DNA from: an uncultured Bacteroidales bacterium
GTDB lineage: Bacteria; Bacteroidota; Bacteroidia; Bacteroidales; Paludibacteraceae
Direction of reading: 5' to 3'
Assembly (NCBI GenBank): GCA_902774185.1
Contig: CACYHE010000001.1
Span: forward strand, 108,332-140,331
Length of the DNA stretch: 32,000 bases
Position 1 is the first letter of the stretch. Every line of letters starts with the position of its first letter. Made by a program: the position numbers and the translations under genes. This document shows, piece after piece, positions 1 through 31,558 of this stretch. Under the pieces are notes generated by a model. The model was not told the origin of the DNA and ran no database searches. It saw nothing but the letters and a program-made list of their open reading frames with translations.

Positions 1-100
1 CGGTGTTGAACTGCGCGTGGCAAGTTGAAAATTGAAAATTGAAAATTGAAAGGAAGATGAATAGGAATAATCCTTTCACCTTTAACCTTTCACCTTTCAT
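1..100 (-). CDS. N-terminal end of a secreted protein or lipoprotein gene that runs off the left edge; only the signal peptide is visible
   Basis: ATG (minus) at 98-100 opens MKGERLKVKGLFLFIFLSIFNFQFSTCHAQFNT..., which is open to position 1. It has a basic n-region, a hydrophobic h-region and a C/AxA-like cleavage context. It is absent from the ORF track because it is under 60 aa in the window. Confidence 0.5.
   Translation of the reverse strand, partial: MKGERLKVKGLFLFIFLSIFNFQFSTCHAQFNT
25..52. repeat. Heptamer tandem array ttgaaaa x4 (sense/minus strand ttttcaa)
   Basis: Read directly: ttgaaaa ttgaaaa ttgaaaa ttgaaag. It encodes the h-region LSIFNFQFS of the partial CDS. About 30 nt match array 16228-16255 with 1 mismatch. 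Confidence 0.95.
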
Positions 101-130
101 CCTATGTGTCCTTTCACCTTTCACCGTTCA
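72..130. repeat. Heptamer array cctttca, 4 + 3 units split by a 10-nt spacer (sense tgaaagg)
   Basis: cctttca cctttaa cctttca cctttca / tcctatgtgt / cctttca cctttca ccgttca. The start codon of the partial CDS sits at the spacer edge (98-100). Confidence 0.95.
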
Positions 131-132
131 AC

Positions 133-2445
133 TTACTTACATCCTTCATTGGGGTCGAACCATGCCGGGATATTGAAGTTCTCTTCGGGATCGTATCCTA
201 AATCGGGGTCATTGAGCACTTTCTGCAGATAGATCGCACAGATAGGCAGGGCAGAGTTGGCACCCTGACCGTATTTCATGGCGTCGAAGTGGATCTGATA
301 GTCCTCTCCGCCGCACCATGCACCGGAGACGAGAGACGGGGTGAAGCACATGAACCATCCGTCCGCATTCTCATTGGACGTACCAGTCTTACCACCCATC
401 GGCGCTTTGATACCGTATTTATACCGCATACGGATACCCGTTCCGACGGTATTGGTGACGCTGTCTTTGCCTAAGACGGACTGTAACATATAGGTCATCT
501 TATAGGCGGTCGTCTCGCTGATGATCTCATGCGTCTTGGGCGTGAAGGAGGCTATGACGTTTCCGTTACTGTCTTCAATACGCGTCACGTAGAGCGGTTC
601 GGTTCGGATACCTTTGTTGGCAAAAGTGGTATATGCGTCCACCATCTCTTCCACACTCACCTCACACGGACCCAGACAGAGCGACACGACGGGGTCTATC
701 TGCCCTTTGATACCGAAGGACCGCATCAGTTTGACTAACTGCTCGGGCGTGTAGAGGGACATGATATAAGCAGACATCCAGTTGGATGATATCTGAAGAC
801 CCCATTTGAAGTCATGTATCTCGTACTGGTGTTCGGCGTGCGTGTCCGCCGGGGTCCATATACTGTCGTTTGGCAGCACGAAGGAGACGGAGTCATAGAC
901 CATCGAGTCGCAGGGCCACATGCCTTCGTCCATCGCCAGAGTGAAGAGGTAAGGCTTGACGGTAGAACCGATCTGACGACGACCTTTGGTGGTCATGTCG
1001 TACTGGAACTGCTCGAAGTTAGGTCCGCCCACATAGGCTTTGACGTGACCCGTATGGGGATCCATCGACATGAATCCGCAGCGCAGGAAACTCTTCTGCC
1101 AACGGATCGAGTCGTAGGGTGTGAGCATGGTGTCCACCATGCCTTGGTAAGTGAACATCCGCATCGGACGGGGTTCGTAGAACGTGCGCAGGATCGAGTC
1201 ATGGGCAATGCCGGCTTTCTTCATGAGGCGGTACCGGTCGGTCTGCTTCATGGCTTTCTCCATCGTTGCCTGCATGTCGAAGGCATGGGCTCCTTTGCCT
1301 AACTGTTTCCGGGAGGGTTCGGAGAAAGGTGCATAGCGTTTGCGTTTCAACTCATTGTCGAAGTCTTTCTGCAGCGCACTCATGTGTTCGTTCACCGCCT
1401 CCTCGGCGTAACGTTGCATACGCGAATCGATGGTGGTGTAGATCTTCAAACCATCCTGGTAGATATCGTATTTGGAACCGTCGGGTTTGCGGTATTTCTC
1501 GCAAAAACCATAGAGCGGATTATTCTCCCATTGCTGCTTATCGATGCTGTACTGCAACTTGTTCCAAGACGGATAATCGCTCTCACGCGGTTCTTTGGCT
1601 GTAAGTGTAAGTCGCAGATACTCACGGAAATAAGGCGCGATACCTTGTTTGTGATCGACGGAACTGAAATGCAACTCCAGCGGTAAGGCAGACACGGAAT
1701 CACGGGTTGCTTCGTCGATATAACCGTACTTCGCCATCTGACTGAGGACGGTGTTCCGACGGTTCTTCGCCCGCTCCGGATGACGACGGGGGTTGTAGTA
1801 CGAAGGGTTCTTACACATGCCCACTAACATTGCCGATTCTTCGATCTTGAGGTTCTTGGGCGTGGTGTTGAAGTAGATCTTGGCCGCCGACTGGATACCT
1901 ACGGCATTATAGAGAAAGTCGAACTGGTTGAGGTACATCAGCAGGATCTCATCCTTGGAGTAGAGTCGTTCCAACTTGGTAGCGATGACCCATTCGATGG
2001 GTTTCTGCATGGCGCGCTCCATGGTGTTGTTGGCACGCGGTGACCATAACTGCTTGGATAACTGCTGGGTAAGCGTACTGCCACCACCGGCTTTACCCAT
2101 CTTCATGATGGCACGGAACATGGATTTGAAGTCGATGCCGGTATGGGTGTAGAAACGGGCGTCTTCGGTAGCGATGAGCGCCATGATGAGCGTGTCGTTC
2201 AGGTCACTGTACTGCACGCCGACACGGTTCTCGTACCGGTAATAACGACCCAAGGACTGATGGTCCGACGAGATAATCTCGCTGGCGAAGGTGTTCTTCG
2301 GGTTCTGTAACTCCTCCAAGGGCGGTAAGTAACCCAATGCGCCTTTGGTGATGAGCCACATGATGAGCCAGACGGCCACTATTCCTACTACGAAGATACT
2401 CCAGAACCAAATCAGGAATTTCTTATACCACGGTTTCTTCTCCAT
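133..2445 (-). CDS. mrcA: Class A penicillin-binding protein 1A (bifunctional transglycosylase/transpeptidase)
   Basis: GT51 motifs EDARFYTHTGID, GGSTLTQQ and RKxxE-like are present, as are transpeptidase motifs STVK, SSN and KTGT. I chose the start at MEKKPWYKKF (ATG 2443-2445) ahead of the TM helix. The 2446-2610 extension in the ORF track overlaps hemW and has no PBP-like sequence. Confidence 0.93.
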   Translation of the reverse strand: MEKKPWYKKFLIWFWSIFVVGIVAVWLIMWLITKGALGYLPPLEELQNPKNTFASEIISSDHQSLGRYYRYENRVGVQYSDLNDTLIMALIATEDARFYTHTGIDFKSMFRAIMKMGKAGGGSTLTQQLSKQLWSPRANNTMERAMQKPIEWVIATKLERLYSKDEILLMYLNQFDFLYNAVGIQSAAKIYFNTTPKNLKIEESAMLVGMCKNPSYYNPRRHPERAKNRRNTVLSQMAKYGYIDEATRDSVSALPLELHFSSVDHKQGIAPYFREYLRLTLTAKEPRESDYPSWNKLQYSIDKQQWENNPLYGFCEKYRKPDGSKYDIYQDGLKIYTTIDSRMQRYAEEAVNEHMSALQKDFDNELKRKRYAPFSEPSRKQLGKGAHAFDMQATMEKAMKQTDRYRLMKKAGIAHDSILRTFYEPRPMRMFTYQGMVDTMLTPYDSIRWQKSFLRCGFMSMDPHTGHVKAYVGGPNFEQFQYDMTTKGRRQIGSTVKPYLFTLAMDEGMWPCDSMVYDSVSFVLPNDSIWTPADTHAEHQYEIHDFKWGLQISSNWMSAYIMSLYTPEQLVKLMRSFGIKGQIDPVVSLCLGPCEVSVEEMVDAYTTFANKGIRTEPLYVTRIEDSNGNVIASFTPKTHEIISETTAYKMTYMLQSVLGKDSVTNTVGTGIRMRYKYGIKAPMGGKTGTSNENADGWFMCFTPSLVSGAWCGGEDYQIHFDAMKYGQGANSALPICAIYLQKVLNDPDLGYDPEENFNIPAWFDPNEGCK

Positions 2446-2459
2446 ATAATTGTTGTTTT

Positions 2460-3536
2460 TTAGTCTCTCATTAAATCTTCTATAATGCGGTTGAGCAGAT
2501 GGATCCCTTGCTGCGTAGCGATGACGCGGTTGTTCTTTATTTGCAACAAACCGGCTTCCAATAGGTCGTCGATGTCCCCGTCTATATCTTCCCTTGCCAC
2601 ACCTTGGCATGTTCGTAAACCCAACATTATGTGTTCGTTATAGCGGTCGGTTTCGGTGAGGGTCTCTTGTTCCCGAATGAGTGTCCCGTCTTCGATGCCG
2701 CGTATGTAAGCATCCAAGTCATCGGGGTTCCAACTGCGTACATTCCTTATATAACTATGCGCGCCTGCGCCCACGCCTACGTAGGGGGTGTTGTTCCAAT
2801 AACTGCCGTTATGCTGCGAGGCGTATCCGGGTAAGGCGAAGTTACTCACCTCATAATGGACGAATCCCGCCTGCTGTAAGCGCTCACACAGATAGTCGTA
2901 CATCGCATTCTCCGTGTCCTCGTCGATCGCCTTAATTCGTTCATTCATTAATTCATTATACAAGGCCGTACCGGGTTCGTACATCAAGCCGTAACACGAT
3001 ATATGTCGGATGCCGAGTGTCAATGCGGTCTCGATGTCCGCTTTCCATTGGTCCATCGTCTGCGTAGGCAAGGCGTATATCAGGTCGATGGATATATTGT
3101 CCAAGCCTGCTTCCTGTGCCATATGTACGGCATCGATGGCTTGCTGTGCATTATGTCTTCGTCCAATCAGTGTCAGCAAGTCATCTTGGAAGGACTGTAC
3201 GCCCATTGAGAGACGGTTGACACCCAAAGCACGCAAACCCTGCAGGTATTCCTTCGTGACATCGCCCGGGTTGACCTCCACCGTATATTCCGCTACCTGA
3301 TCCCTATTCAGCACGTGGTTAATACGGGTCATCGCTTCCAAGGACAAGGTGCTTGGCGTTCCGCCGCCTATATAGATCGTGCGGATCGGTTCGCCTGCTT
3401 CGTCCTGCCGTGCTTTTATCTCTTGGACCAATGCCGATACATACGCGTCCTGCCGCTCCAACCGGGTGGTGGAGAAGAAATCGCAATACAAGCAGCGCTT
3501 CTTGCAGAACGGAATATGTATATACAGACCGGACAA
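2460..3536 (-). CDS. hemW: Radical SAM heme chaperone HemW (HemN-like, coproporphyrinogen III oxidase family)
   Basis: The N-terminus MSGLYIHIPFCKKRCLYCDF carries the CxxxCxxC radical SAM motif, and a HemN_C-like tail follows. The start codon at 3534-3536 is TTG, the first start after an in-frame TAA. Confidence 0.9.
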   Translation of the reverse strand: MSGLYIHIPFCKKRCLYCDFFSTTRLERQDAYVSALVQEIKARQDEAGEPIRTIYIGGGTPSTLSLEAMTRINHVLNRDQVAEYTVEVNPGDVTKEYLQGLRALGVNRLSMGVQSFQDDLLTLIGRRHNAQQAIDAVHMAQEAGLDNISIDLIYALPTQTMDQWKADIETALTLGIRHISCYGLMYEPGTALYNELMNERIKAIDEDTENAMYDYLCERLQQAGFVHYEVSNFALPGYASQHNGSYWNNTPYVGVGAGAHSYIRNVRSWNPDDLDAYIRGIEDGTLIREQETLTETDRYNEHIMLGLRTCQGVAREDIDGDIDDLLEAGLLQIKNNRVIATQQGIHLLNRIIEDLMRD

Positions 3537-3570
3537 TTTATGATTTATGATTTATGATTTATGATTTGTG
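3536..3570. repeat. Heptamer array atttatg x5 (sense cataaat)
   Basis: atttatg x4 followed by atttgtg. It fills the hemW-rarA junction and contains the rarA TAA stop (3559-3561) and its last 3 codons. It abuts the hemW TTG start. Confidence 0.95.
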
Positions 3571-4782
3571 CCAAAACTCTGTGCCGACGAGTTCATCGGG
3601 TAAGTACTGCTGCGCTACCCAATGGTTCGGGTAATCATGCGGGTACAAGTACCCGTCGGCGTACCCGAGATCTTTCATCAAACTCGTCGGAGCGTTACGC
3701 AGGTGTAAGGGAACGGGTAGGTTACCCGTCTCACGCACTTTAGCCAAGGCATCGTCGATGGCCAAATAAGCGGAGTTATCTTTCTTGCAGGTAGCCAGAT
3801 AGATGGTTGTCTCTGCCAAGGGGATACGTCCTTCGGGCCAACCGATCTTATTCACCACATCGAAGCAAGTGTTGGCGAGTAACATCGCATTGGGGTTCGC
3901 CAAACCGATATCTTCGCTTGCCAGAATGACGAGTCGCCGTGCAATGAACTTCGGATCCTCCCCGCCTTCTATCATGCGTGCCAACCAGTAGATGGCAGCT
4001 TGCGGATCGCTACCCCGAACGGACTTGATGAAGGCAGAGATGATGTCGTAGTGCATCTCGCCGTCCTTGTCGTACGCGACGGGGTTCTGTTGTAACTGTT
4101 TGGTGACCGTCTCATTATCAATGATTTTCGCACCGCTGTTACTTACCAGTTCGATGATATTGAGTAGCTTGCGTGCGTCACCTCCACTATACCGCAAGAG
4201 TGCCTCGGTTTGTTTGACTTCGATATGAAGCGAACGGATGATCTCATCTTTGGTGAAGACGCGGTTGAGCAGTTCCATCAGGTCCTCTTTGTCGAGCGAC
4301 TTGAGGACATAGACCTGACACCGGCTGAGGAGCGGGGTGATCACTTCGAAAGACGGGTTCTCGGTCGTGGCACCGATAAGGGTGATCGTTCCTTCTTCCA
4401 CCGCACCCAAGAGGCTGTCCTGTTGGGATTTGGAGAAACGGTGGATCTCATCGATGAAGAGGATGGGGGAACGACTGTCCGCAGGCGCAAAGAGACCGCT
4501 GTTGATGGACGCAGTGCGTTTGGCTTTGTCAATGACGTCCCGTACTTCCTTCACGCCGCTCGTGACCGCACTGAGGGTGTAGAAAGGTCGTTGCAGTTGG
4601 TGCGCGATGATACGGGCAAGGGTTGTCTTACCTACACCCGGAGGTCCCCATAAGATGAAACTGGCGATATTTCCGCTCTCTATCATCTGACGAAGGATGG
4701 CTCCTTGTCCCACCAAATGGCGTTGACCTATGTATTCGTCCAGCGTCTTCGGACGCATGCGTTCTGCTAATGGCAAACTCAT
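3559..4782 (-). CDS. rarA: Replication-associated recombination protein A (AAA+ ATPase RarA/MgsA)
   Basis: Walker [10 protein letters not shown], Walker [11 protein letters not shown] and an MgsA_C-like C-terminal domain. ATG at 4780-4782. Confidence 0.93.
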
Positions 4783-4815
4783 TTATGATGTACGATTTAC
4801 GATGTACGATTTAAT
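4781..4815. repeat. Heptamer array with a 14-bp super-unit (atttacg atgtacg)
   Basis: atttatg atgtacg atttacg atgtacg atttaat. It contains the rarA ATG (4780-4782), the recN TAA (4797-4799) and the recN C-terminal residues LNRTS. Confidence 0.95.
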
Positions 4816-6377: not shown

Positions 6378-6379
6378 TT

Positions 6380-6409
6380 CTTTCAACTTTCAACTTTAAA
6401 CTTTCAACT
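6380..6409. repeat. Heptamer array ctttcaa x4 (sense ttgaaag), recN leader
   Basis: ctttcaa ctttcaa ctttaaa ctttcaa ct. Positions 6379-6409 are identical (31 nt) to 9024-9054 inside aroE. Confidence 0.95.
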
Positions 6410-6410
6410 G

Positions 6411-6436
6411 ACAGAATCAATTTCCGTTGATTCTGT
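6411..6436 (-). terminator. Perfect 10-bp stem / 6-nt loop hairpin spanning the DUF4835 stop codon
   Basis: acagaatcaa (6411-6420) and ttgattctgt (6427-6436) are exact reverse complements. The TGA stop at 6417-6419 lies inside the stem. There is no U-tract. Confidence 0.35.
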
Positions 6437-7343
6437 CATACGTTGCCTGCCGGGTGGCATCGATATCCATCAGCAGGTCATACACTGTTTTCTTCTCTTT
6501 GTCCGTTCCTTTGCTGAAGATATCCACCAACTCATCGGCTTTGGCGTCCAGGAAAGTGTTGATGACGTAGGTAGCGGGACGGGAACGATAGGCCTCTTTG
6601 AGCACCGGAATGCCTTCGGCGATACGTGCTCTGCCGTTGGTGGCATTGGCACTCATCTCGTCCAAACCCAAACGGTGGTACTCGTAATAGAAATTGCGGT
6701 ATTTCTTGAAAGACTCATCCAAGAGGTTATTAATCAGCGCGTAACGGTTTCGGTTACTGTTAAACGCCGTCCATCCTTTCTGTTCCTTATCGTCCATGCT
6801 CACACCTTGGCAGAGGGTGACGATCTGTTCGCATTGCTGGAAGAACGGGGTGCCGCCTAAACGCTGAAAACTATCGCAGTCATGCCCGATGATGAGATAA
6901 CAGTAGTACGCCAACATCGCCGTGAGGTTGGTAGAGAATGTGTTCTGCTGCCACTCGATGCGGTCAAACTCCTCGTACGTGAAATTGAAGTTTTCATCCC
7001 GGAAGTTGAGGAGCGGGGTGGTGTAGGTCGTGCCAAAGACGGGACGACGGCTCTGTAGTGTCATCTCGCAAAGGTACAGGTTGTCCTGCACGGCTTTTAC
7101 AACAAGTAACATGCTGCACTCGATTTTCTCATGCTCCGCAAAGGTCATGTTGGTCCATCGGTTCTGGTTCATGTACTCTTCGATGGCGGTCTTGAGGGTG
7201 GCAAAGGCCTGTTTGTTCGAACCCTCTATCTGATCCGAGTTCACCGTGACCGTGCATTTGAGTTCCTGGGCATGAAGGGGAGCACAGAACACAGAACACA
7301 GAACACAGACCGATAATGCTATGTATCTAAATTTTAAAATCAT
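6417..7343 (-). CDS. DUF4835 family protein (PorD-like), secreted
   Basis: Signal peptide MILKFRYIALSVCVLCSVFCAPLHA/QE followed by a VTVNSDQIEGSNKQAF...NQNRWT block typical of DUF4835. Its position next to recN is the usual Bacteroidota synteny. The family name is from memory. Confidence 0.8.
   Translation of the reverse strand: MILKFRYIALSVCVLCSVFCAPLHAQELKCTVTVNSDQIEGSNKQAFATLKTAIEEYMNQNRWTNMTFAEHEKIECSMLLVVKAVQDNLYLCEMTLQSRRPVFGTTYTTPLLNFRDENFNFTYEEFDRIEWQQNTFSTNLTAMLAYYCYLIIGHDCDSFQRLGGTPFFQQCEQIVTLCQGVSMDDKEQKGWTAFNSNRNRYALINNLLDESFKKYRNFYYEYHRLGLDEMSANATNGRARIAEGIPVLKEAYRSRPATYVINTFLDAKADELVDIFSKGTDKEKKTVYDLLMDIDATRQATYDRINGN
7283..7310. repeat. Heptamer array cacagaa x4 (sense ttctgtg)
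   Basis: cacagaa x3 followed by cacagac. It encodes VCVLCSVFC, the h-region of the DUF4835 signal peptide. Confidence 0.95.
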
Positions 7344-7366
7344 AAATCTAAAATCTCAAATATCAA
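7325..7366. repeat. Degenerate heptamer array atctaaa-type x6
   Basis: atctaaa ttttaaa atcataa atctaaa atctcaa atatcaa. It spans the DUF4835 start (7341-7343) and the junction to the DUF4831 stop. Confidence 0.8.
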
Positions 7367-8440
7367 TTACTTAGTAATTGATTCAATGTTTCCGGTTCGT
7401 TCGTTAAAGAGAATGACGGGCAGTTGATCGCCGGTAAAGAGTTCTTTGGGCAGCGGTACGTCGATCCCTAACTGGGCGATGGAGATGGTGCGTTGTGCCA
7501 ATTCGTTCTCATTATAACGAACGGTCACGACACCGTTTCCCGGCAGGTTATACACGATCTGCGAGAGGGCAGGAGCCGTTTCTCCTTTTTTCTTCTTCTT
7601 GTCAAGGGGTTCCGGTGCCGGTTTGGCATATTTCTGTGGTTGGAGCGCTACCTGCACGCGAATAGGCAGGGCTTCGAGATTCTCGGCATCGGTGAAACCG
7701 TTCTCAGGAGAGAAGAACCATACATGCTCGGTGCTATCGGGCAGGAAGCTTACTTCTTTATGGATGGTTCGGGTGGTCTTTTTGCCGATGAACAGTTCGG
7801 TCAGTGCCTGTTCCTGTTGGTCCAGTTCTTCCAACACCCGTTTCATCGCTGTGCCATCCGCAGGTGCATGTTCCACTTCGCCGCTCAGCAGGTACATACG
7901 GGTCTCCCGCAGATGGAAGATCTGCTGGGCGATCGCATTGGCTTGCGCCAAAGGAGACGCCGCTTTGAGTACTTCTTCGGGGTACGGCGCGACCTTGATG
8001 GAAGGCTGTTTCTTGCTGCACTCGTCTTTGGACGTATTACCCTTCACCCGTTCACCGTTCATCTTTTCATCCTTGTTCTGCGGCAAGTTATATCCGACCA
8101 GCAGTCCTTTCTCGTTGATGGTCAGAACCATCGGAACCTCGGACTCATGGGTCACCTTGTGCGGACGTGTACGGTCGGCATTGGTACGGGTCAAGACACG
8201 GGCACCGGTGAGGGTGTAGGTCGTCTTTGTCTCCTCAACGGCATTCGTGGCACCGATGAGGTCCGCTGCGAATGCTGCATAGGGACCTGCTTCTTGGTTC
8301 TCTACCTGATACGTGAAGTCAATGACCACTGTTGTCTGCGGTGCATAATACACCATCGCCGACTCATTGGGTGCCAGCACTTGTGCGTGGCTAGTACTGA
8401 TCATTACTGCTCCAAGGAGCACTAAAAAGAATTTTTTCAT
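7367..8440 (-). CDS. Secreted hypothetical protein, DUF4831-like
   Basis: 357-aa ORF with signal peptide MKKFFLVLLGAVMISTSHA/Q. The family assignment is from memory and is less certain than the CDS call. Confidence 0.75.
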   Translation of the reverse strand: MKKFFLVLLGAVMISTSHAQVLAPNESAMVYYAPQTTVVIDFTYQVENQEAGPYAAFAADLIGATNAVEETKTTYTLTGARVLTRTNADRTRPHKVTHESEVPMVLTINEKGLLVGYNLPQNKDEKMNGERVKGNTSKDECSKKQPSIKVAPYPEEVLKAASPLAQANAIAQQIFHLRETRMYLLSGEVEHAPADGTAMKRVLEELDQQEQALTELFIGKKTTRTIHKEVSFLPDSTEHVWFFSPENGFTDAENLEALPIRVQVALQPQKYAKPAPEPLDKKKKKGETAPALSQIVYNLPGNGVVTVRYNENELAQRTISIAQLGIDVPLPKELFTGDQLPVILFNERTGNIESITK

Positions 8441-8453
8441 ATATTTAGCAAAA

Positions 8454-9170
8454 TCAATTATTCCAAATCTTCCAAGCTTCTTTGGCTTGACCTGTTAACA
8501 TCTCTATTCCGTTCTGCGTTCGGACACCTTGTGCTTTGCCTTTACGCAAGAAGAGGGTCTCTTCGGGGTTGTAGATACAATCGTACAACAAATGTTGTGC
8601 CGAAAGGTGTTCGTAGGGTATCGGCGGACAAGTATCGATATCCGGATACATGCCTAATGGCGTACAGTTGACGATGACCGTATGGCGGTTCATGATGTCG
8701 GAATCCAAATCGTCGTACGTCAAGGTTCCTTCTGCAGCATGCCTACTGACAAGGGTAGGGACGATCCCTAACAGCCGTAACGCATAGCACACGGCTTTGG
8801 CGGCACCGCCAGTACCTAACACCAAGGCCTGTCGGTCTTGTTTGTGCAACAATGGTCTTATCGATTCCATGAATCCGATATAGTCGGTGTTGTAACCGGT
8901 TCGTTGATACACCACGTTTACGGCGCCTATCGCTTGTGCCGTCGGGTCGATACGATTCAGGTACGGGATAATCGCCTGTTTATACGGATACGTCACATTA
9001 AACCCGTCCAAATCGGACAAAAGTCTTTCAACTTTCAACTTTAAACTTTCAACTCTCGTTGGGTACAACGAGTACTCCGCCTCTATGCCTTCTGTCGCAA
9101 ATTTCTGATTGAAGAACTGCGCAGAGAACGAGTGTTCCAATGGAAATCCTATGATACCGAAGTGACGCAT
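8454..9170 (-). CDS. aroE: Shikimate dehydrogenase
   Basis: MRHFGIIGFPLEHSFS, GFNVTYPYK, GAVN and the NADP-binding GTGGAAKAV motif. It contains a translated heptamer array at 9025-9054 (RVESLKLKVER). Confidence 0.9.
   Translation of the reverse strand: MRHFGIIGFPLEHSFSAQFFNQKFATEGIEAEYSLYPTRVESLKLKVERLLSDLDGFNVTYPYKQAIIPYLNRIDPTAQAIGAVNVVYQRTGYNTDYIGFMESIRPLLHKQDRQALVLGTGGAAKAVCYALRLLGIVPTLVSRHAAEGTLTYDDLDSDIMNRHTVIVNCTPLGMYPDIDTCPPIPYEHLSAQHLLYDCIYNPEETLFLRKGKAQGVRTQNGIEMLTGQAKEAWKIWNN
9025..9054. repeat. Heptamer array ctttcaa x4, translated inside aroE
   Basis: ctttcaa ctttcaa ctttaaa ctttcaa ct. It is read in frame as RVESLKLKVER. Confidence 0.95.
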
Positions 9171-10032: not shown

Positions 10033-10055
10033 CTAATCCACTAATCCACTAATCC
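10033..10055. repeat. Octamer array ctaatcca x2.9 (sense tggattag)
   Basis: ctaatcca ctaatcca ctaatcc. It lies at the tilS-ettA junction and contains the ettA TAG stop (10041-10043) and its last residues. Confidence 0.9.
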
Positions 10056-11719: not shown

Positions 11720-11749
11720 CTTTCAACTTTAAACTTTCAACTTTCAACT
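11720..11749. repeat. Heptamer array ctttcaa x4 (sense ttgaaag), ettA leader and folA 3' end
   Basis: ctttcaa ctttaaa ctttcaa ctttcaa ct. The flanks catttc...ctg are identical to those of array 6380-6409. Confidence 0.95.
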
Positions 11750-12422: not shown

Positions 12423-12689
12423 TTATTTCTTTTTACGTTGAATAAAATAAATTATGGTTGAAATGATAGCAACCGGAGCACCTACAAATATGCCTATGAA
12501 TCCACACGTACATGCGAAATAGACACAGCCACGTATCCATTTCGGGGCAAATCCCAAAGCATCTGAGGAATCATACCCAAGCACGACGCTAGCATAGGTT
12601 CCTATTCCTACGTATAGTAGAATACAAATAACAGTAACTACCCAAGAGGTAATCAATACTCGTTTTGCTATTTGTAGAGACTCGCTCAT
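12423..12689 (-). CDS. Small hypothetical membrane protein (88 aa, 2-3 predicted TM helices, KKK tail)
   Basis: The ORF has hydrophobic segments VLITSWVVTVICILLYVGIG and GFIGIFVGAPVAIISTIIYF. It sits 7 nt downstream of the GxxExxY gene, is visibly AT-rich, and has no family I recognise. Confidence 0.55.
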   Translation of the reverse strand: MSESLQIAKRVLITSWVVTVICILLYVGIGTYASVVLGYDSSDALGFAPKWIRGCVYFACTCGFIGIFVGAPVAIISTIIYFIQRKKK

Positions 12690-12696
12690 AATTGCA

Positions 12697-13140
12697 TCAA
12701 AACATATACATTACGCCATCCTTGGTATCCAAGTAGTAGTGTTCCGCTTGGTCCATGGGAGGGGCAAAGTTCCACAAAATACCGATCTGCTTGCCGGTCA
12801 GGCGCATGTAGTTCCACAGTTGCTGACGATGCTCCGCTACCAGTTTGTCCACCGCCTTGCACTCTATAATGACCTCATCATTAATCAGGAAATCTACGAA
12901 GTGCTTATGCTGTATGGGCTTGCCGTGAAAGACTACCGAGAAGTAGTACTCACGCTGGTAAGGTATCTGTTGCTCGTCCAGTAGAATCTGCAATGCTTCC
13001 TGATACATATACTCATTCAAGAAAGGTCCAAGCTCGCGGTGTACAGCAGCGCACGCACCATTGATGGCGTAGCATTTAGCCTTTAGTTGCTCGCACAACT
13101 CCGGGTGCTTGTCTATCAATCTTTTCAGCGTATATTGCAT
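12697..13140 (-). CDS. GxxExxY family protein (TIGR04256-like, PD-(D/E)XK nuclease-like fold)
   Basis: 147 aa. The HRELGPFLNEYMYQEAL segment followed by ...DFLINDEVIIECKAV... matches my memory of the multi-copy Bacteroidota GxxExxY family. Confidence 0.75.
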   Translation of the reverse strand: MQYTLKRLIDKHPELCEQLKAKCYAINGACAAVHRELGPFLNEYMYQEALQILLDEQQIPYQREYYFSVVFHGKPIQHKHFVDFLINDEVIIECKAVDKLVAEHRQQLWNYMRLTGKQIGILWNFAPPMDQAEHYYLDTKDGVMYMF

Positions 13141-13168
13141 AATCGAAAAATGTTTTTTGTGTTTATGT

Positions 13169-13291
13169 CTGATTATTGATTTTTAATTCGAAGAATTTGG
13201 AAGATTATTTTGATAAAATGATTTGCAAATTTATTTGTGAAAGCAGTTTAGCAAAATAAGATTCGTATTGTCAAATAAAATCAATAATCAG
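13169..13291. repeat. 123-bp element bounded by a perfect 15-bp inverted repeat (MITE-like, E2); carries the likely GxxExxY promoter
   Basis: ctgattattgatttt (13169-13183) and aaaatcaataatcag (13277-13291) are exact reverse complements. The interior holds a minus-strand TTTG-N18-TAAATTTG. Confidence 0.5.
13226..13255 (-). promoter_or_regulatory. Probable promoter of the GxxExxY / small-membrane-protein pair
   Basis: The minus strand reads TTTG (13252-13255), N18, TAAATTTG (13226-13233), about 85 nt upstream of the ATG at 13140. Confidence 0.4.
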
Positions 13292-13353
13292 GGTTTTGTA
13301 TGTTTTTTTCTTAAATTATCAATCAGTGTTTTATATGTTTTTTTCCTTCAAAT
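13281..13353. repeat. Tandem imperfect duplication of about 37 bp just downstream of the thyA stop
   Basis: tcaataatcagggttttgtatgtttttttcttaaatt versus tcaatcagtgttttatatgtttttttccttcaaat. The first copy includes the right inverted-repeat arm of element 13169-13291. Confidence 0.7.
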
Positions 13354-13354
13354 T

Positions 13355-17615: not shown

Positions 17616-17620
17616 CGTTT

Positions 17621-17686: not shown

Positions 17687-17709
17687 TAGAAGACAATGGT
17701 CCAATTCTG

Positions 17710-17766
17710 TCAATTGATCAATTGATCAATCAATCGTCCAATCGTCAATCGTCCAATCGTCAATTA
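17710..17766. repeat. tcaattga x2 followed by a caatcgtc/caatcgt array (7/8 alternation, 15-bp super-unit x2)
   Basis: tcaattga tcaattga tcaat caatcgtc caatcgt caatcgtc caatcgt caatta. It ends at the bactofilin TAA (17764-17766). Confidence 0.9.
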
Positions 17767-18126: not shown

Positions 18127-18140
18127 AATATAATTATTTA

Positions 18141-18161
18141 TCAATTGTCAATTATCAATTA
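18141..18161. repeat. Heptamer array tcaattg/tcaatta x3
   Basis: tcaattg tcaatta tcaatta. It lies at the bactofilin-esterase junction and contains the esterase TGA stop (18155-18157). Confidence 0.85.
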
Positions 18162-18901
18162 TTGAAAAGTTTCGGCAAGAAACGTTTCAAATACTCTTGC
18201 CAATTCGGCCATACATGACCGTCCGTACTCTCGTAATACGTGTACTCCACATGCTCTTTTTCAAGCCATTTGCGGTACTCCTGAAAACTATCCCACAGAA
18301 AATCCTCCGTACCGATACCCAACCAGAACACTTTCGCGTCTTTCGGAGCATTATGAACGAACGTAGCCGGCGAGAACATTCCTACATACGCAAATTGTCC
18401 TTCCAACACATAGGACACCCGCATCGTGTGGTAACCACCCATTGAGAGACCGGCGATCGCGCGTTGCTCGGGATCCGTGCAGATACGGTATTTCGACTCT
18501 GTCTCCTTCATGAAAGCACCGAAGTTCGCTTCCCATTGACCGTTGGACGCGTTCTCTCTCTCTTCCTCCGAAGTAGGCCTGCTCGGACAGTTATCCGGCA
18601 TCACGACAACCATCTCACGTATCTCGCCTGCGCGTAGAAGGGAGTCCATAATAGGCACTAATCGACCCTGTGTGGTCCAGTCGAACTCATTTCCCCACAT
18701 CCCGTGTTGCAGATAGAGCACCGGAAAGACCTCCGTACGTGCTGCGTACTGATCCGGCAGATAGACACAGCAGGGCACGCCGTTCAAGGTGTCTTGTACC
18801 ACCGTACCGGCCTGTAACGGCCTGTCTTCCACCTGTTTCGCACATGCTATACTCATGCACGCGATACCTATCAGATAGGCACTAAAAATCCATTTCTTCA
18901 T
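18155..18901 (-). CDS. Esterase family alpha/beta hydrolase, lipoprotein or secreted
   Basis: Signal peptide MKKWIFSAYLIGIACMSIAC, the GLSMGG nucleophile elbow, and a PF00756-like layout. Start at ATG 18899-18901. The upstream track extension reads through the promoter. Confidence 0.85.
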   Translation of the reverse strand: MKKWIFSAYLIGIACMSIACAKQVEDRPLQAGTVVQDTLNGVPCCVYLPDQYAARTEVFPVLYLQHGMWGNEFDWTTQGRLVPIMDSLLRAGEIREMVVVMPDNCPSRPTSEEERENASNGQWEANFGAFMKETESKYRICTDPEQRAIAGLSMGGYHTMRVSYVLEGQFAYVGMFSPATFVHNAPKDAKVFWLGIGTEDFLWDSFQEYRKWLEKEHVEYTYYESTDGHVWPNWQEYLKRFLPKLFNN

Positions 18902-18954: not shown

Positions 18955-19110
18955 CACGCGCGTACTTTTTTATGATTTTTATTACTTTTTCCTTCTTCCA
19001 AATTCGCATAGTTCAAAATTATTTGTTCCTTAATATCCTATGTATCGAACTCAACCATCGATACCTGTGTAATCCATGTAAAATAAAGGCTTGCCACGTA
19101 TGCGTATTGG

Positions 19111-19150
19111 GTGATTATAGGGAGATTATTGCGTGATTATTGCGTGATTC
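19111..19150. repeat. 11-bp period tandem repeat gtgattattgc x3.6
   Basis: gtgattatagg gagattattgc gtgattattgc gtgattc. It lies in the spacer between the FGE stop and the esterase promoter. Confidence 0.85.
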
Positions 19151-20738: not shown

Positions 20739-21425
20739 ATGAAAAATAATGTTTTTGCGGGCGCGTTGGTAGCGCTGGGTTTATGTCTTGGAGGTTTGTT
20801 CATTAACCTCGGTATTAATAAGTTTGCCTCGAAAGATCGGGCGGTGACGGTGAAGGGTCTGAGTACCCGTGAAGTGGAAGCGGACTATGCCGTTTGGCCT
20901 TTGTCGTTTGCATGGAGCGGAAATGATCTGCCGGCACTCTATACGAAGTTGGAACAAGTGACCGAGCGGGTGAAGAACCATCTGCAGTCCCTGGGCTTTG
21001 AGGAAGCCGATATCCGGCAGGGTAGTGTGTCGGTTAGCAATAACTGGGACGGATACTACGGTAATCGTCCGGAATTCAAATATACGCTGAGTACGTCGCT
21101 TATCGTTTCGACCGATAAAGTGGCGTTGGTTGTGGCGAGTCAAGGAAAGGAATCCGCTTTGCTCAAAGAGGGAATCATCGTGACTACAGAGAAATGGAAT
21201 CTGGATTACCAGTTCAACGGTCTGCCTGAGTTGAAGCCGTCGATGATCGAAGAGGCAACGCGTAATGCCCGTGCGGTCGCACAGAAATTTGCGGACGATG
21301 CCCAATGTAACTTGGGTTCGATCCGTCAAGCCAGCCAAGGACAGTTCTCCATCGAGTCCGACCAGTACCAGCCTTGGCGCAAACATGTACGCGTCGTGAC
21401 GACCGTTGATTATTATCTCAATTAA
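20739..21425 (+). CDS. SIMPL domain-containing protein (DUF541)
   Basis: MKNNVFAGALVALGLCLGGLFINLG (TM anchor) followed by DRAVTVKGLSTREVEADYAVWPL, typical of Bacteroidales SIMPL proteins. ATG at 20739, 19 nt after a TAATTTTG -7 box. Confidence 0.85.
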   Translation: MKNNVFAGALVALGLCLGGLFINLGINKFASKDRAVTVKGLSTREVEADYAVWPLSFAWSGNDLPALYTKLEQVTERVKNHLQSLGFEEADIRQGSVSVSNNWDGYYGNRPEFKYTLSTSLIVSTDKVALVVASQGKESALLKEGIIVTTEKWNLDYQFNGLPELKPSMIEEATRNARAVAQKFADDAQCNLGSIRQASQGQFSIESDQYQPWRKHVRVVTTVDYYLN

Positions 21426-21454
21426 GAATTAAGAATTACGAATTAAGAATCAAA
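21420..21454. repeat. Heptamer array aattaag x5, gyrA leader
   Basis: aattaag aattaag aattacg aattaag aatcaaa. It contains the SIMPL TAA stop (21423-21425) and ends 11 nt before the gyrA ATG. Confidence 0.95.
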
Positions 21455-25383: not shown

Positions 25384-25805
25384 TGGGTCGCATTCTCGCA
25401 ATAGATTACGGTCGTAAACGCACAGGATTAGCCGTTACGGATATTCTCCGCATAACGGCTAATCCGTTGCTTACGATTGAGACGAAGGATTTGATAAACT
25501 GGTTGACGGGCTACTTCGCTAAAGAAGCTGTTGACGAAGTGGTTATCGGTCATCCGACCCAGATGAACGGTACAGAATCGGAGTCGATGAATTATATCCG
25601 ACCGTTCATGGGCGTATTTAAAAAGACGTTTCCAGACAAACCTATAACTATGTATGACGAGCGCTTCACGTCGGTATTGGCGCACAGGGCAATGATTGAC
25701 GGGGGAATGAAGAAAAAAGACCGACAGGACAAAGCGGTAGTGGATAAGATCGCCGCATGTATCATCCTCGAGGGTTACCTCGAGAAGTTGAAAGTTGAGA
25801 GTTGA
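25383..25805 (+). CDS. ruvX: Holliday junction resolvase-like protein RuvX (YqgF)
   Basis: MGRILAIDYGRKRTGLAV and DERFTS motifs. TAATG overlap with the upstream gene. Its TGA stop at 25803-25805 lies inside array 25788-25815. Confidence 0.9.
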   Translation: MGRILAIDYGRKRTGLAVTDILRITANPLLTIETKDLINWLTGYFAKEAVDEVVIGHPTQMNGTESESMNYIRPFMGVFKKTFPDKPITMYDERFTSVLAHRAMIDGGMKKKDRQDKAVVDKIAACIILEGYLEKLKVES

Positions 25806-25815
25806 AAGTTGAAAG
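25788..25815. repeat. Heptamer array ttgaaag x4 on the plus (sense) strand
   Basis: ttgaaag ttgagag ttgaaag ttgaaag. It encodes the ruvX C-terminus KLKVES plus its TGA stop. This is the same unit family as 6380, 9025 and 11720, again in sense orientation. Confidence 0.95.
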
Positions 25816-26401: not shown

Positions 26402-26404
26402 GGA

Positions 26405-27531: not shown

Positions 27532-28748
27532 TTACGATAGGAGATGAACTGCTGATCGGTCAGGTGGTGGACACCAACTCCGCTTGGATGGCCCAGCGAT
27601 TGAATGAGCAAGGTATTGAACTATACCGGATTACGTCCGTTCATGACGATAAGGCACAGATCATAGATGCCTTAGATGCTGCATTTAACGAAGTGGATAT
27701 CGTGTTGACGACCGGCGGTTTGGGTCCGACCAAAGATGATATCACCAAGCAGGTGTTATGCGATTATTTCCATACGCACCTTATAGAAGATACGCGTGTG
27801 CGTACGCATATAGAGGAACTCTATCGTGATCGTCCGGACGTGTTGAACCGACTGACCGCTACGCAATGGCAAGTGCCTGCTTGTGCCGAGATTCTGGAGA
27901 ATCGGGTAGGGTCCGCTCCGCTGATGGTTTTTAAGAAGGATGACAAGCTGCTTATCACTATGCCCGGTGTGCCTTACGAGATGAAGATCGCGATGGAGGA
28001 ACAAATTCTGCCGTTTATAGAGTCGAAAGTCGAAAGTCAAAAGTCGAAAGCCATTATCCATAAGACGCTGCAGGTGACGGGTATCGCAGAGAGTTCGTTG
28101 GCGATCTTACTGGAGGACTTTGAGAACCGAATGCCTTCGTCCTTGCACTTGGCGTATTTACCCAAAGACGGGGTGATCCGTTTGCGTTTGTCGAGTTACG
28201 GCGATATGACAGAAGAAGAGGTGACACGTTGGTTTGATGAGTTGAAACAGTTGACGGCTGATTATCTGATCGCCGATACCGATGAACCGCTTGAAGTGAT
28301 TGTAGGCAATGTGTTAAAAGCCAAAGGCATGACCATCTCCACTGCCGAGAGTTGTACAGGCGGTAAACTGGCTTCATTACTCAATAAGCATGCCGGTTCG
28401 TCTGCTTTCTATTGGGGTTCGGTCATCAGTTATGACAACTCCGTCAAGGTGCAGGTCTTAGGCGTTCCGGCAGAACTGATAGAAAAGTACGGCGTAGTAA
28501 GCGAAGAGGTGGTACGTGTGATGGCACAGTCTGTTCGCAAACTAACCAATACTACTTGTAGTATTGCTACATCCGGTATCGCAGGACCATCCGGTGGTTC
28601 GAAAACCAAGCCGGTTGGTACCGTTTGGATGGCTTGGGACACGCCTAAAGGGACGTTTGCGGAGTGTTTTCATTTAGGCAAACTGCGTGAACAGGTAACC
28701 GACAGAGCATGCCAGAAAGCATTGATAGGATTATTAAAACATATTTAA
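27516..28748 (+). CDS. cinA: CinA family protein (competence/damage-inducible; NMN deamidase-type C-terminal domain)
   Basis: MRAEIITIGDELLIGQVVDTNS (MoCF_biosynth domain) and a C-terminal ESCTGG CinA domain. An alternative ATG at 27504 would add MEKT. It contains a translated array at 28021-28048 (ESKVESQKSK). Confidence 0.9.
   Translation: MRAEIITIGDELLIGQVVDTNSAWMAQRLNEQGIELYRITSVHDDKAQIIDALDAAFNEVDIVLTTGGLGPTKDDITKQVLCDYFHTHLIEDTRVRTHIEELYRDRPDVLNRLTATQWQVPACAEILENRVGSAPLMVFKKDDKLLITMPGVPYEMKIAMEEQILPFIESKVESQKSKAIIHKTLQVTGIAESSLAILLEDFENRMPSSLHLAYLPKDGVIRLRLSSYGDMTEEEVTRWFDELKQLTADYLIADTDEPLEVIVGNVLKAKGMTISTAESCTGGKLASLLNKHAGSSAFYWGSVISYDNSVKVQVLGVPAELIEKYGVVSEEVVRVMAQSVRKLTNTTCSIATSGIAGPSGGSKTKPVGTVWMAWDTPKGTFAECFHLGKLREQVTDRACQKALIGLLKHI
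28021..28048. repeat. Heptamer array agtcgaa x4, translated inside cinA
   Basis: agtcgaa agtcgaa agtcaaa agtcgaa. It reads ESKVESQKSK. The unit differs by one base from gttgaaa (TGA becomes CGA). Confidence 0.95.
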
Positions 28749-28760
28749 AATAAACAGATA

Positions 28761-30925: not shown

Positions 30926-30943
30926 AATGTTACAAAATTTGTG

Positions 30944-30975
30944 CAAAATTAGTGAAAAATTTCTTATTTTACAAA
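30944..30975 (-). promoter_or_regulatory. Probable promoter of the O-methyltransferase gene
   Basis: The minus strand reads TTTG (30972-30975), N20, TAATTTTG (30944-30951), 18 nt upstream of the ATG at 30925. Confidence 0.5.
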
Positions 30976-31000
30976 TAAAAACGATTATTTTTCACAAAAT

Positions 31001-31032
31001 TTTGCACATATCAAAAAAAAATTGTAATTTTG
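31001..31032 (+). promoter_or_regulatory. Bacteroidota sigma-A type promoter of the Lrp/AsnC gene
   Basis: TTTGcacatatcaaaaaaaaattgTAatTTTGc. The architecture is the same as the two promoters above: TTGC-N2-AT-N-TCAAAAAAAA-N2/3-GTA-N2-TTTGC. Confidence 0.65.
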
Positions 31033-31061
31033 CAGTCAAATTTAAGCATTTTATTACAGTA

Positions 31062-31520
31062 ATGGAAAAGATAGACGAATTAGATCGTAAAATTCTTAGA
31101 ATTATCACGCAGAGCGCCCGTATTCCGTTCAAGGATGTAGCGGAGCAATGTAACGTAAGTCGCGCCGCAGTACACCAGCGTGTGCAGAAGATGTTTGACA
31201 ACGGTGTCATCACCGGTTCCAGTTACCATGTAGAGCCGGCTGCTTTGGGATATCACCTGTGTGTGTATATCGGTATCACGATGGAGAAAGCATCGATGTA
31301 CAACAAAGTCATTGCTGCACTGAAGGAGATTCCGGAGGTAGTGGAGGCACAATATACCTTAGGTGCTTTCGGTCTGCTTGTCAAAGTGTTTGCACATGAT
31401 AACGAGCATCTGCTGCAGGTGTTGAATACGAAGATCCAAGAGATACCAGGTGTTGCCAATACGACTACGTTAACGGCACTTGCACAACCTATCTATCGTC
31501 AGTTACCGATTGAGGTTTAA
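31062..31520 (+). CDS. Lrp/AsnC family transcriptional regulator
   Basis: MEKIDELDRKILRIITQSARIPFKDVAEQCNVSRAAVHQRV is the HTH_AsnC segment, followed by an RAM/ACT-like C-terminal domain. ATG lies 30 nt after a TAATTTTG box. Confidence 0.88.
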   Translation: MEKIDELDRKILRIITQSARIPFKDVAEQCNVSRAAVHQRVQKMFDNGVITGSSYHVEPAALGYHLCVYIGITMEKASMYNKVIAALKEIPEVVEAQYTLGAFGLLVKVFAHDNEHLLQVLNTKIQEIPGVANTTTLTALAQPIYRQLPIEV

Positions 31521-31558
31521 GGAATTAGGGTTTAGAGAATTAGGGAATTAGAGAATTT
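31516..31558. repeat. aattaggg/aattagag array (period 7-8, roughly 16-bp super-unit), trpS leader
   Basis: tttaagg aattaggg tttagag aattaggg aattagag aattt. It starts at the Lrp-family gene stop codon and ends at the trpS ATG. Confidence 0.9.

Follow-up and report, generated by a model that had tools for sequence, protein, structure and literature searches.

Genes and Arrays of the Window

The stretch of DNA analysed here (the window) comprises 32,000 nucleotides (nt) of contig CACYHE010000001.1, from an uncultured Bacteroidales bacterium (GenBank assembly GCA_902774185.1, labelled Paludibacteraceae), and its subject is a set of short tandem arrays, mostly of 7-nt units, which occupy most of the spaced junctions between co-directional genes. 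The genes, curated with Pfam for the protein families, are ordinary Bacteroidales housekeeping genes. A minus-strand block from position 1 to about 20534 contains PBP1, HemW, MgsA, RecN, DUF4835, DUF4831, AroE, TilS, ABC-F, DHFR, PDDEXK_3, ThyA, an OmpA/TPR lipoprotein, DUF1015, bactofilin, an esterase and an FGE-sulfatase, and the plus-strand block after it contains SIMPL, GyrA, TPR, RuvX, Def, MntP, DUF3109, CinA, a metallophosphatase, AsnC and TrpS. Of 27 co-directional junctions, 23 are non-overlapping, and an array is present at 14 of the 23, close to an earlier estimate of about 13 of about 20; seven more arrays lie within coding sequence. Start codons given by our own gene caller are approximate.

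The arrays were called with Tandem Repeats Finder (TRF), the window count referring to periods of 7–11 and a score of at least 40. In this way 23 arrays were found, as against a mean of 0.01 and a maximum of 1 in 100 dinucleotide-preserving shuffles. The original prediction, which was made from the letters of the window alone, had listed 21 arrays, and all of them were found by TRF and direct reading of the sequence at or within a few bases of their places, with the same unit families and loci in TRF. Among them, the array at 7325–7361 is degenerate (70% matches), and two further arrays had been missed, an 8-mer at 2932–2958 and an 11-mer at 30933–30962. The period of 7–8 that had been given throughout holds for most arrays, but the array at 19105–19149 has a period of 11. 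The TTGAAAG family is sense-oriented in both the minus-strand and the plus-strand gene blocks, as had been stated.

The junction arrays of the minus strand, with units written in the sense direction, are placed as follows. CATAAAT in 4.6 copies (3536–3567) holds the MgsA stop codon TAA (3559–3561) and adjoins the TTG start of HemW (3536), and ATCGTAC/ATCGTAA in 4.7 copies (4781–4813) forms the last RecN codons together with the RecN stop and ends at the MgsA ATG (4782). The sequence TTGAAAG TTTAAAG TTGAAAG TTGAAAG (6380–6409) ends 2 nt 5′ of the RecN ATG (6378) and is adjoined by a hairpin with an 11-bp stem (6410–6438), which surrounds the DUF4835 stop (6417–6419). The degenerate array (7325–7361) consists of 5.3 copies of ATTTTAG between the DUF4831 stop and DUF4835, and the DUF4835 ATG (7343) is itself part of a variant unit, ATTTATG; a 9-bp palindrome (7362–7382) surrounds the DUF4831 stop (7367–7369). 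Since no U-tract follows the stop-codon hairpins at 6410–6438 and 7362–7382, they are not classical terminators. Further along, GGATTAGT in 2.9 copies (10033–10055) holds the ABC-F stop TAG and ends 2 nt 5′ of the GTG start of TilS, TTGAAAG in 4.3 copies with one TTTAAAG (11720–11749) holds the DHFR stop TGA (11737–11739) and ends 2 nt 5′ of the ABC-F ATG, and TTGATAA in 3.6 copies (18138–18162) has the esterase stop inside it and lies 11 nt 5′ of the bactofilin ATG. On the plus strand, AATTAAG in 4.4 copies (21420–21450) contains the SIMPL stop TAA about 15 nt 5′ of the GyrA ATG; AAGTTGA (i.e., TTGAAAG) in 4.4 copies (25785–25815) encodes the last residues and the stop of RuvX; and an 8-mer of the GGAATTAG type in 5.2 copies (31514–31557) extends from the AsnC stop TAA (31518–31520) to 1 nt 5′ of the TrpS ATG (31559).

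Distribution of Arrays in the Clade

Two sets of relatives were compared with the window. The first consists of 80 syntenic rumen and gut loci of metagenome-assembled genomes (MAGs), which were obtained by a DUF1015 protein search with one genome per species and are labelled Paludibacteraceae or uncultured Bacteroidales (top match at 89% protein identity); the second consists of 80 further loci from a metagenome scan with DUF4835. The related loci or contigs compared with the window carry L-numbers (L009, L019, etc.). Clade statistics were taken over 1.4 Mb (window plus relatives), and dimers of named units were searched over 1.92 Mb (window plus loci). In addition, contigs 100% identical to the window are present in ENA ERZ1029112, the same arrays occur in JGI contigs at 98–99% identity and in ENA, JGI and Logan contigs at 95–98% identity, and an exact-protein look-up with ThyA returned solely a contig identical to the window.

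In the 80 MAG loci, TRF gave 234 arrays of period 7, 54 of period 8, 81 of period 11, 18 of period 9 and 12 of period 10, with none below 7, so the prevailing unit is the heptamer. In the 1.4 Mb, the periods that rise above shuffles are 7, 8 and 11 alone (and 14, which is twice 7), and periods 4, 5, 6, 10, 12 and 13 stay at the shuffle background. Period 7 shows a large excess of runs of 16–35 nt and a steep drop beyond, the excess for periods 8 and 11 being smaller. At least 68 distinct heptamer units were counted. Their copy number has its mode at 4–4.5 (about 30 nt) in junction and within-gene arrays alike, and the within-gene arrays show a dip at 3 copies; the mode and the dip in internal arrays together fit a frame-preserving step of +21 nt.

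The predicted enrichment at junctions was confirmed over the 1.4 Mb, where 69% of array bases lie in intergenic DNA, itself 10.8% of all bases, and arrays make up 8.8% of intergenic bases. Among 216 period-7/8 arrays near gene ends, 112 have their start 1–14 nt short of where the upstream stop codon ends, in 109 the end lies 0–14 nt 5′ of the downstream ATG, and the median share of the stop-to-ATG spacer taken by the array is 72%. Arrays per gene end number about 0.30 at stop-to-start junctions versus about 0.09 at convergent ones. It had also been proposed that the arrays follow the transcribed strand, and this remains true after orthologous copies are collapsed, with sense-to-antisense ratios of 12:1 for AAAAATT, 11:0 for AAAGTTG, 11:2 for AATAATG, 10:1 for AATTGAT and 8:0 for AAGAATT. 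On the sense strand the arrays consist of 43% A, 35% T, 15% G and 6.5% C, and the unit contains a stop triplet in sense in 90 of 118 junction events versus 55 of 118 in antisense. The predicted folding of array leaders (46 nt) has a median of −2.3 kcal/mol, versus −4.2 kcal/mol for non-array leaders.

Births at Orthologous Junctions

The DUF4835→RecN junction was compared in 80 lineages. About half of them keep a stop/start overlap (TAATG or TGATG), and in the remaining lineages an array stands exactly between the stop and the ATG, its unit varying by lineage; the units include TTGAAAG, ATTTTAG, AAATTAA, GAATTAC, ATACTGA, GTGAATTA, GGATTAGN and GTTTAGA. In L100, L099, L105, L121 and L015 the unit is an exact copy of the final heptamer of the upstream gene, including its stop codon. 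For example, the junction of L100 reads gaaaattaa followed by AAATTAA GAATTAA AAATTaatg (i.e., gaaaattaa and then AAATTAAGAATTAAAAATTaatg), that of L099 reads acgaattaa followed by AAATTAC GAATTAC and so on, and that of L105 reads gaaactga followed by AAACTGA ATACTGA and so on. AATAATG, the commonest unit of the data set, is the overlap motif itself (AA-TAA-TG). Likewise, DHFR and ABC-F overlap by 14–23 nt in most species and are separated by differing arrays in others.

Because the units differ between lineages and several equal the local gene end, repeated local births are indicated, and we infer from these alignments that most arrays were probably born locally through tandem duplication at stop/start overlaps. 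The near-identity of distant copies had earlier been ascribed to copying or gene conversion rather than slippage; this is right for some of the composite modules described below, but not for the many independent units at one orthologous junction.

Turnover between Close Relatives

L088, at 96.9% identity to the window over 8.9 kb with seven arrays, shows not a single copy-number difference from it, and the sole difference in the arrays is one variant unit, TTTAAAG versus TTAAAAG. The arrays of L083 and L084 (98–99% identity) are free of indels. Among genomes 95–98% identical, presence or absence of whole blocks was seen: L089 (96% identical) lacks a 43-nt block of hairpin arm and array at the RecN junction and has a TGATG overlap instead, and L085 and L087 lack a 60-nt block between RuvX and Def and have an ATGA overlap instead, with a Def protein 100% identical to that of the window. 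Whole-unit length variation of the kind ascribed to slippage in long simple sequence repeats (LSSRs) was found as well, L085 having one extra unit (+7 nt at 18154, in the array at 18138–18162) and L009 differing from L019 by one unit. Among close relatives the junction arrays diverge faster than their coding flanks, in a comparison whose pairs were picked for a shared unit, which biases the high identity at large divergence, so that only the close-relative bins are used.

The constant copy numbers at 97% identity indicate that ongoing slippage is slow and that births may be multi-unit events. Together with the differences at the level of blocks, they mean that the arrays are not hypervariable contingency loci and turn over on the timescale of species divergence. 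Just upstream of the RuvX–Def array, the 24 nt at 25763–25786 carry nine substitutions relative to L085 and L087, mostly at third codon positions, while the preceding 33 nt are identical in the window and in both relatives; this clustering suggests that the array allele was brought in from a more divergent strain by recombination over a short tract.

Arrays inside Genes and Signal Peptides

The gene calls of the clade contain 103 mid-gene arrays, and in-frame arrays of period 7 occur in many housekeeping proteins. Since 7 is coprime to 3, a unit that contains TAA, TGA or TAG stops all three frames, that is to say, it can be tolerated immediately behind a gene but is lethal within one. The internal arrays of the window avoid such stops in different ways. 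In AroE (9025–9054, minus strand) the units TTGAAAG TTTAAAG TTGAAAG TTGAAAG are read as GTT GAA AGT TTA AAG TTG AAA GTT GAA AGA (VESLKLKVER), and the sole in-frame TGA is abolished by the variant unit TTTAAAG. In DUF1015 (16915–16948, minus strand) AATTAAA in 4.9 copies encodes ELKIKNEKLKIK and is common to about 15 related species, and its in-frame TAA is abolished by the variant AATGAAA. In the interdomain linker of CinA (28021–28050, plus strand) the unit GTCGAAA, in 4.3 copies encoding ESKVESQKSK, is free of stops in every frame. The AroE segment reads VESLKLKVES, IGNLKLEIGN or MDNGQWTMDNG depending on the lineage, DUF1015 has three loop hot spots with a unit that differs by species, and unrelated proteins carry the same array-coded peptides (VESLKLKVE, VESQKSKVE and ELKIKNE).

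The 8-mer array in HemW (2932–2958, minus strand, TGAATTAA type in 3.4 copies) lies in frame in the linker between the radical-SAM and HemN_C domains and encodes the peptide YNELMNERIK, where L089 differs by small indels. In L004, L021 and L047 the DUF1015 loop has a longer peptide repeat, MSAAKLLND/MSATKSLND, at the place where the window has the AATTAAA array; the presence of a longer repeat in the same loop indicates a general hot spot of tandem duplication with several unit lengths.

T-rich arrays in the reverse orientation encode the hydrophobic cores of signal peptides. In the window, on the minus strand, these are TTCTGTG in 3.9 copies in DUF4835 (7283–7309, MILKFRYIALSVCVLCSVFCAPLHA followed by QE), TTTTCAA in 4.1 copies in the OmpA/TPR lipoprotein (16226–16254, MLKSDRSKVKGFLLSIFIFQFSILLSGC) and TTTTCAA in 3.9 copies (25–51) in an open reading frame (ORF) downstream of PBP1, which starts at 100 with the signal peptide MKGERLKVKGLFLFIFLSIFNFQFSTCHAQ and continues past the window end. 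Many OmpA/TPR orthologues have other T-rich heptamer arrays at the same core. The proposal that the arrays carry stop codons, C-terminal residues, signal-peptide cores and internal enzyme segments is thus upheld.

Inverted Pairs and Dispersed Modules

Three loci of the window, all on the minus strand, are inverted pairs of arrays, which fold better than shuffles. The hairpin at 15–140 (dG −40.3 kcal/mol, z −4.9) is formed by the array at 25–51 and by GTGAAAG/TGAAAGG in 8.6 copies (72–134), the latter covering the PBP1 stop region, the leader, and the ATG and charged N-region of the next ORF. The hairpin at 16215–16335 (dG −32.1 kcal/mol, z −3.7) is formed by the array at 16226–16254 and by TGAAAGG/GTGAAAG in 9.1 copies (16262–16328), which extends over the DUF1015 stop and the leader as well as the ATG (16294) and charged N-region of the OmpA/TPR lipoprotein, whose ATG lies in the upper part of the hairpin. 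At the third locus, a 148-nt composite of the form (TTGACGATTGGACGA)n + (TTGATCAA)n ... (AAATCGTA)n (17616–17763) occupies the bactofilin→DUF1015 spacer, and its inverted arms fold over 17610–17770 (dG −37.7 kcal/mol, z −2.5). The arrays had been described as non-palindromic, hence unlike repetitive extragenic palindromic (REP) sequences; single arrays are indeed not self-complementary, but the three composite loci form long hairpins with z from −2.5 to −4.9.

The 148-nt composite, built of TTGACGA/TCGTAAA, aligns end-to-end with elements that L120, L007 (two copies) and L006 carry at other junctions, and half-copies exist elsewhere. At least five full copies, with inverted arms, occur at four junctions in four genomes, always starting at the stop codon and ending near the ATG; beyond these two codons, neither conserved ends nor a target-site duplication was found in the aligned copies. 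The view that the arrays are far shorter than miniature inverted-repeat transposable elements (MITEs) fails for this recurring composite. For about 150 nt, the OmpA/TPR module, which comprises the leader array, the ATG and the signal peptide, is shared by the window and L019 at 100% identity, in flanks of about 77% identity; in L009, closely related to L019, another module is present. An identical module in such divergent flanks indicates recent inter-species exchange of an N-terminal cassette. Between 16180–16345 of the window and 11270–11430 of L019, the sole difference is 31 nt more array in L019. A paralogous module is found downstream of PBP1 (82% identity over about 130 nt), and L019 has a second copy. 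The hairpin at 6410–6438 has a 3′ arm complementary to the final DUF4835 codons; the pairing at the DUF4835 end is kept with other sequence elsewhere (GACAGAATCAA/TTGATTCTGTC in the window, GATCGAA/TTCGATC in L008).

The occurrence of direct and inverted local duplications together points to template switching during replication, and the shared modules indicate that some copying and inter-species exchange also takes place. In the Pfam annotation of the window genes there are no transposase, integrase or reverse-transcriptase domains and no cas domains. Together with the contiguity of the array units, this supports the earlier statement that the arrays are not clustered regularly interspaced short palindromic repeats (CRISPR). 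Three AATAATG cassettes with a 63-nt period in L019 (9411–9565) were considered as a CRISPR-like case, but the "spacers" are identical and the structure is a plain tandem duplication. A search of Rfam at the gathering threshold gave no match in the window.

Comparison with Known Repeats

The nearest parallel in behaviour is that of the TAACTGA repeats, which were reported in marine Beggiatoaceae, in some Cyanobacteria and in five Bacteroidetes, Paludibacter propionicigenes among them (MacGregor 2015, PMC4679880). They occur in 2–6 tandem copies, mostly intergenic and forward in orientation, most often end 1 nt before a start codon, can overlap the end of the upstream ORF and provide stops in all three frames, and their function is unknown (PMC4679880). 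Moreover, "split" sets with one variant unit, reverse-orientation copies translated within ORFs, indels in 7-nt steps between strains and the absence of a Shine-Dalgarno sequence were described (PMC4679880). The window arrays are likewise 7-nt tandem repeats, intergenic and forward, near start codons and overlapping the upstream stop, and the clade shares the variant unit within a set, the translated reverse copies, the 7-nt indels and the lack of a Shine-Dalgarno sequence. The differences are as follows: the TAACTGA repeats have one dominant unit, whereas this clade has at least 68; their copy number falls from 2 upward, whereas the mode here is about 4; and for many births in this clade, unlike that case, the source is recognisable as the local gene end at a stop/start overlap, so that horizontal spread of one unit need not be invoked. 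No TAACTGA dimer is present in the 1.92 Mb, the nearest units being ATACTGA/AAACTGA in L105.

According to the partial summaries in PMC4679880 and PMC4692102, the LSSR survey of Mrazek (2007) found heptamers to be the commonest long simple sequence repeats (SSRs) in bacteria and proposed polymerase slippage; the taxa named in the partial summary of PMC4679880 are Burkholderia, two Cyanobacteria, three Actinobacteria and Xanthomonas. Within the limits of these summaries, the present arrays agree with LSSRs in units of 5–11 nt, dominance of heptamers, abundance and length above chance (23 versus 0.01 in the window, and period-7 runs of 16–35 nt far above shuffles in the 1.4 Mb), intergenic location and patchy phylogeny. 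They differ from the survey as summarised in their high density, 8.8% of intergenic bases, and in their frequent in-frame period-7 arrays, which the survey is said there to have deemed disfavoured.

The heptamers of Xanthomonas (GGGAATC) and Nostoc (GGGGAYT) are G-rich and quadruplex-forming, with a mode of four units and some inverted pairs from which stem-loops can form (Rehm et al. 2015, PMC4692102). The arrays of this clade are similarly intergenic, with a four-unit mode, inverted pairs and junctions shared by related species with variation in length and sequence, but their units are A/T-rich and C-poor in sense; in the 1.92 Mb there are no GGGAATC dimers, one GGGGATT dimer and no trimers of either. 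TTTTGAA heptamers near start codons of Nostoc have been implicated in regulation, with no mechanism given (bioRxiv 10.1101/2022.06.06.494920). Dimers of CCCCAGT, TTGGTCA and CAACAGT were not found in the 1.92 Mb. These are units of the short tandemly repeated repetitive (STRR) sequences of Calothrix and Anabaena, which are dispersed intergenic families of tandem heptanucleotides, often in longer arrays. The likeness to STRR sequences lies in tandem heptanucleotide families in intergenic regions, and the units differ. Compared with REP sequences, bacterial interspersed mosaic elements (BIMEs) and MITE-like elements, the three composite loci are also imperfect inverted repeats of 110–150 nt between co-directional genes, and one composite family is multi-copy; unlike them, the arms are heptamer or octamer arrays, no target-site duplication was seen and the copy number is low. 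Our literature search found no paper on tandem repeats in Paludibacteraceae.

In summary of these comparisons, the arrays are an unusually dense, multi-unit case of already described, poorly understood heptanucleotide repeats and not a new kind. The original prediction that they could not be placed in a described family does not hold, since heptanucleotide LSSRs are a described kind and the TAACTGA repeats behave near-identically (PMC4679880).

Origin of the Arrays

The explanation that we consider probable, with considerable doubt remaining, is that the arrays are locally born heptamer SSRs, filtered by constraints of frame and strand and occasionally copied as hairpin modules. That is to say, they would be the product of mutation throughout a lineage, an uncultured clade of rumen Bacteroidales (GenBank label Paludibacteraceae), and not a dedicated genetic system. 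Judging from the orthologous junctions, the ancestral state of many operon junctions would be a stop/start overlap (TAATG, TGATG or ATGA), at which replication slippage or template switching may duplicate the last 7–8 nt of the upstream gene, stop codon included. Since the upstream gene would still find its stop in the first copy and the start codon is merely displaced, neither gene would be harmed, and growth to about 4 copies (about 30 nt) would be possible. The sense-strand bias would result from seeding by A-rich gene ends and from the filter of three-frame stops. Within genes, copies would persist only in putative loops or linkers, with a stop-free unit or one variant that removes the stop, and T-rich copies in reverse orientation may persist where they encode the hydrophobic core of a signal peptide. 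The inverted array pairs that fold as hairpins would come from a switch of template to the opposite strand, and a few composite modules of 110–150 nt would have multiplied within genomes and passed from one genome to another by recombination.

In Bacteroidota, translation starts without Shine-Dalgarno pairing, the leaders being unstructured and A/U-rich. The probable consequence of an array birth would be that an overlapping, translationally coupled gene pair becomes a pair with a landing pad of about 30 nt that is A/U-rich, C-poor and weakly structured. That close relatives lack a given array and that arrays of the same size lie inside genes argues for any such leader effect being a by-product and not the reason for the arrays.

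Several observations weigh against local birth with filtering as a full account. Several array-bearing loops have about the same length as their array-free counterparts in relatives, so simple insertion fails as an explanation there. The same order of units, TTGAAAG TTTAAAG TTGAAAG TTGAAAG, stands at the unrelated sites 6380 and 9025, the pattern AATGAATAATTAATAATGAATAATGAATA recurs at several junctions of L008, L019 and L023, and modules are common to divergent genomes. The copy mode of about 4 and the steep fall above about 35 nt appear in intergenic arrays free of frame constraint as well, whereas slippage alone predicts a roughly geometric distribution of copy number. Copy numbers are constant in seven arrays between genomes 97% identical, relatives differ in density, with 0 to 7 arrays per 10 kb, and the proneness of the clade is left without explanation. 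As for the leaders, composition-matched shuffles give −2.45 kcal/mol, so repetition adds nothing and their weak folding is fully explained by base composition alone.

Part of this evidence would suit small non-autonomous mobile cassettes, with arrays of about 30 nt and hairpin elements of 110–150 nt copied into other junctions and loops by an enzyme or through illegitimate or homologous recombination, and recurrent units reflecting descent and not convergence. The OmpA/TPR module shared with L019 and absent from L009, its paralogue downstream of PBP1 with the second copy in L019, the 148-nt composite at other junctions, the identical variant patterns at unrelated sites, the same array-coded peptides in unrelated proteins and the presence or absence of blocks of 43–60 nt can all be read in this way. 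We nevertheless regard it as unlikely: the aligned copies show neither a target-site duplication nor conserved ends except the stop codon and ATG, no window gene has a mobility domain in Pfam, and at least 68 units exist, many of which at one junction match the local gene end. Furthermore, the simplicity of the repeats makes convergence cheap, and exchange of modules between species is explicable by ordinary homologous recombination through conserved coding flanks.

A dedicated or strongly biased array-writing process, for example a template-switching polymerase or repair activity or a mobility of small cassettes, which makes arrays of about 30 nt and hairpins of 110–150 nt in single events, is decidedly doubtful. 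The period-7 preference, the mode of about four copies, the loop lengths, the recurring variant patterns and the density differences keep it alive as a minority view. If it were true, portable cassettes of leader and signal peptide would be swapped between lipoprotein genes and species, and protein loops would be rewritten in place with their length unchanged.

Selection of the arrays as cis-acting RNA elements, to which a trans-acting factor (ribosomal protein S1, a cold-shock protein or a CsrA-like protein) would bind and control downstream translation, seems improbable to us, although the same idea was proposed in PMC4679880 and bioRxiv 10.1101/2022.06.06.494920. The sense orientation, the ends 0–14 nt before the ATG, the filled spacers, the preference for stop-to-start over convergent gene ends and the A/U-rich, C-poor, weakly structured leaders are in its favour. 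However, the diversity of units speaks against a sequence-specific binder, close relatives with identical downstream proteins lack the array, arrays of the same size and unit lie in coding regions where a leader role is inapplicable, and the structural effect is purely compositional.

Phase variation, in which fast copy-number change would switch adjacent genes, is very improbable. Tandem SSRs near start codons, the 7-nt difference between the window and L085 and the faster divergence of junction arrays among close relatives (in the biased comparison mentioned above) recall such contingency loci, but copy numbers are identical in all arrays compared at 97–99% identity, and the neighbours are housekeeping genes (GyrA, RecN, DHFR, Def, TilS, etc.) and not surface, virulence or restriction-modification genes. 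In addition, a unit change between stop and ATG shifts no frame, and a one-unit change in an in-frame period-7 array would destroy an essential enzyme, not switch it. Finally, an assembly or sequencing artefact, which the breaks of two source-assembly contigs inside arrays might suggest, has practically no chance of being the cause, as identical arrays recur in independent ENA, JGI and Logan assemblies and GenBank MAGs made with different assemblers, and specific variant units keep reading frames open.

Significance of the Arrays

The origin and function of bacterial heptamer repeats have long been open (STRR; Mrazek 2007; MacGregor 2015), and the rumen clade is a rich natural experiment in this respect, with hundreds of related genomes in which the same junction is either an overlap or one of many arrays. 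This material allows births and step size to be counted, and a replication or repair gene that tracks array density to be sought. It also allows a test of how an overlap, as compared with a 30-nt A/U-rich spacer, affects translation without a Shine-Dalgarno sequence. Moreover, it provides clear cases in which simple-repeat DNA has become part of signal peptides and enzyme loops.

There is also a practical warning, because the arrays break short-read contigs and mislead the calling of start codons and protein lengths in MAG annotation. The source short-read assembly contigs L081 and L082 stop inside arrays, at window positions 16295 and 16254, and genes beside arrays receive differing starts and lengths from gene callers (SIMPL 252 or 228 amino acids; AsnC 197 or 172 amino acids). 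Such contig ends and discordant starts indicate that the arrays degrade both assembly and annotation of these MAGs.

The 11-nt Class and Inserted Genes

The arrays of period 11 form a separate class of about 4 copies with GC-richer units such as AATCACCCNAT and CCCATAGGATT; 81 of 90 are intergenic, and they sit in longer, promoter-type spacers. In the window this class is represented by AATCACGCAAT in 4.1 copies (19105–19149, minus strand) in the 214-nt FGE→esterase spacer, and a further 11-mer, CAAAATTTGTG in 2.7 copies (30933–30962, no strand assigned), lies in the divergent OMT/AsnC region. As 11 nt is about one helical turn, the period suggests phased protein-binding sites and not the heptamer process.

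Two gene insertions were also observed. ThyA and DHFR, neighbours in most relatives, are separated in the window by a PDDEXK_3 (PF13366) gene and an ORF of 88 amino acids (12423–13354), with AT-rich spacers of 188 and 214 nt at the flanks and a 35-nt direct repeat (13286–13354); this looks like an inserted selfish or accessory gene. In L019, an unrelated small gene stands between bactofilin and DUF1015 with arrays on its borders.

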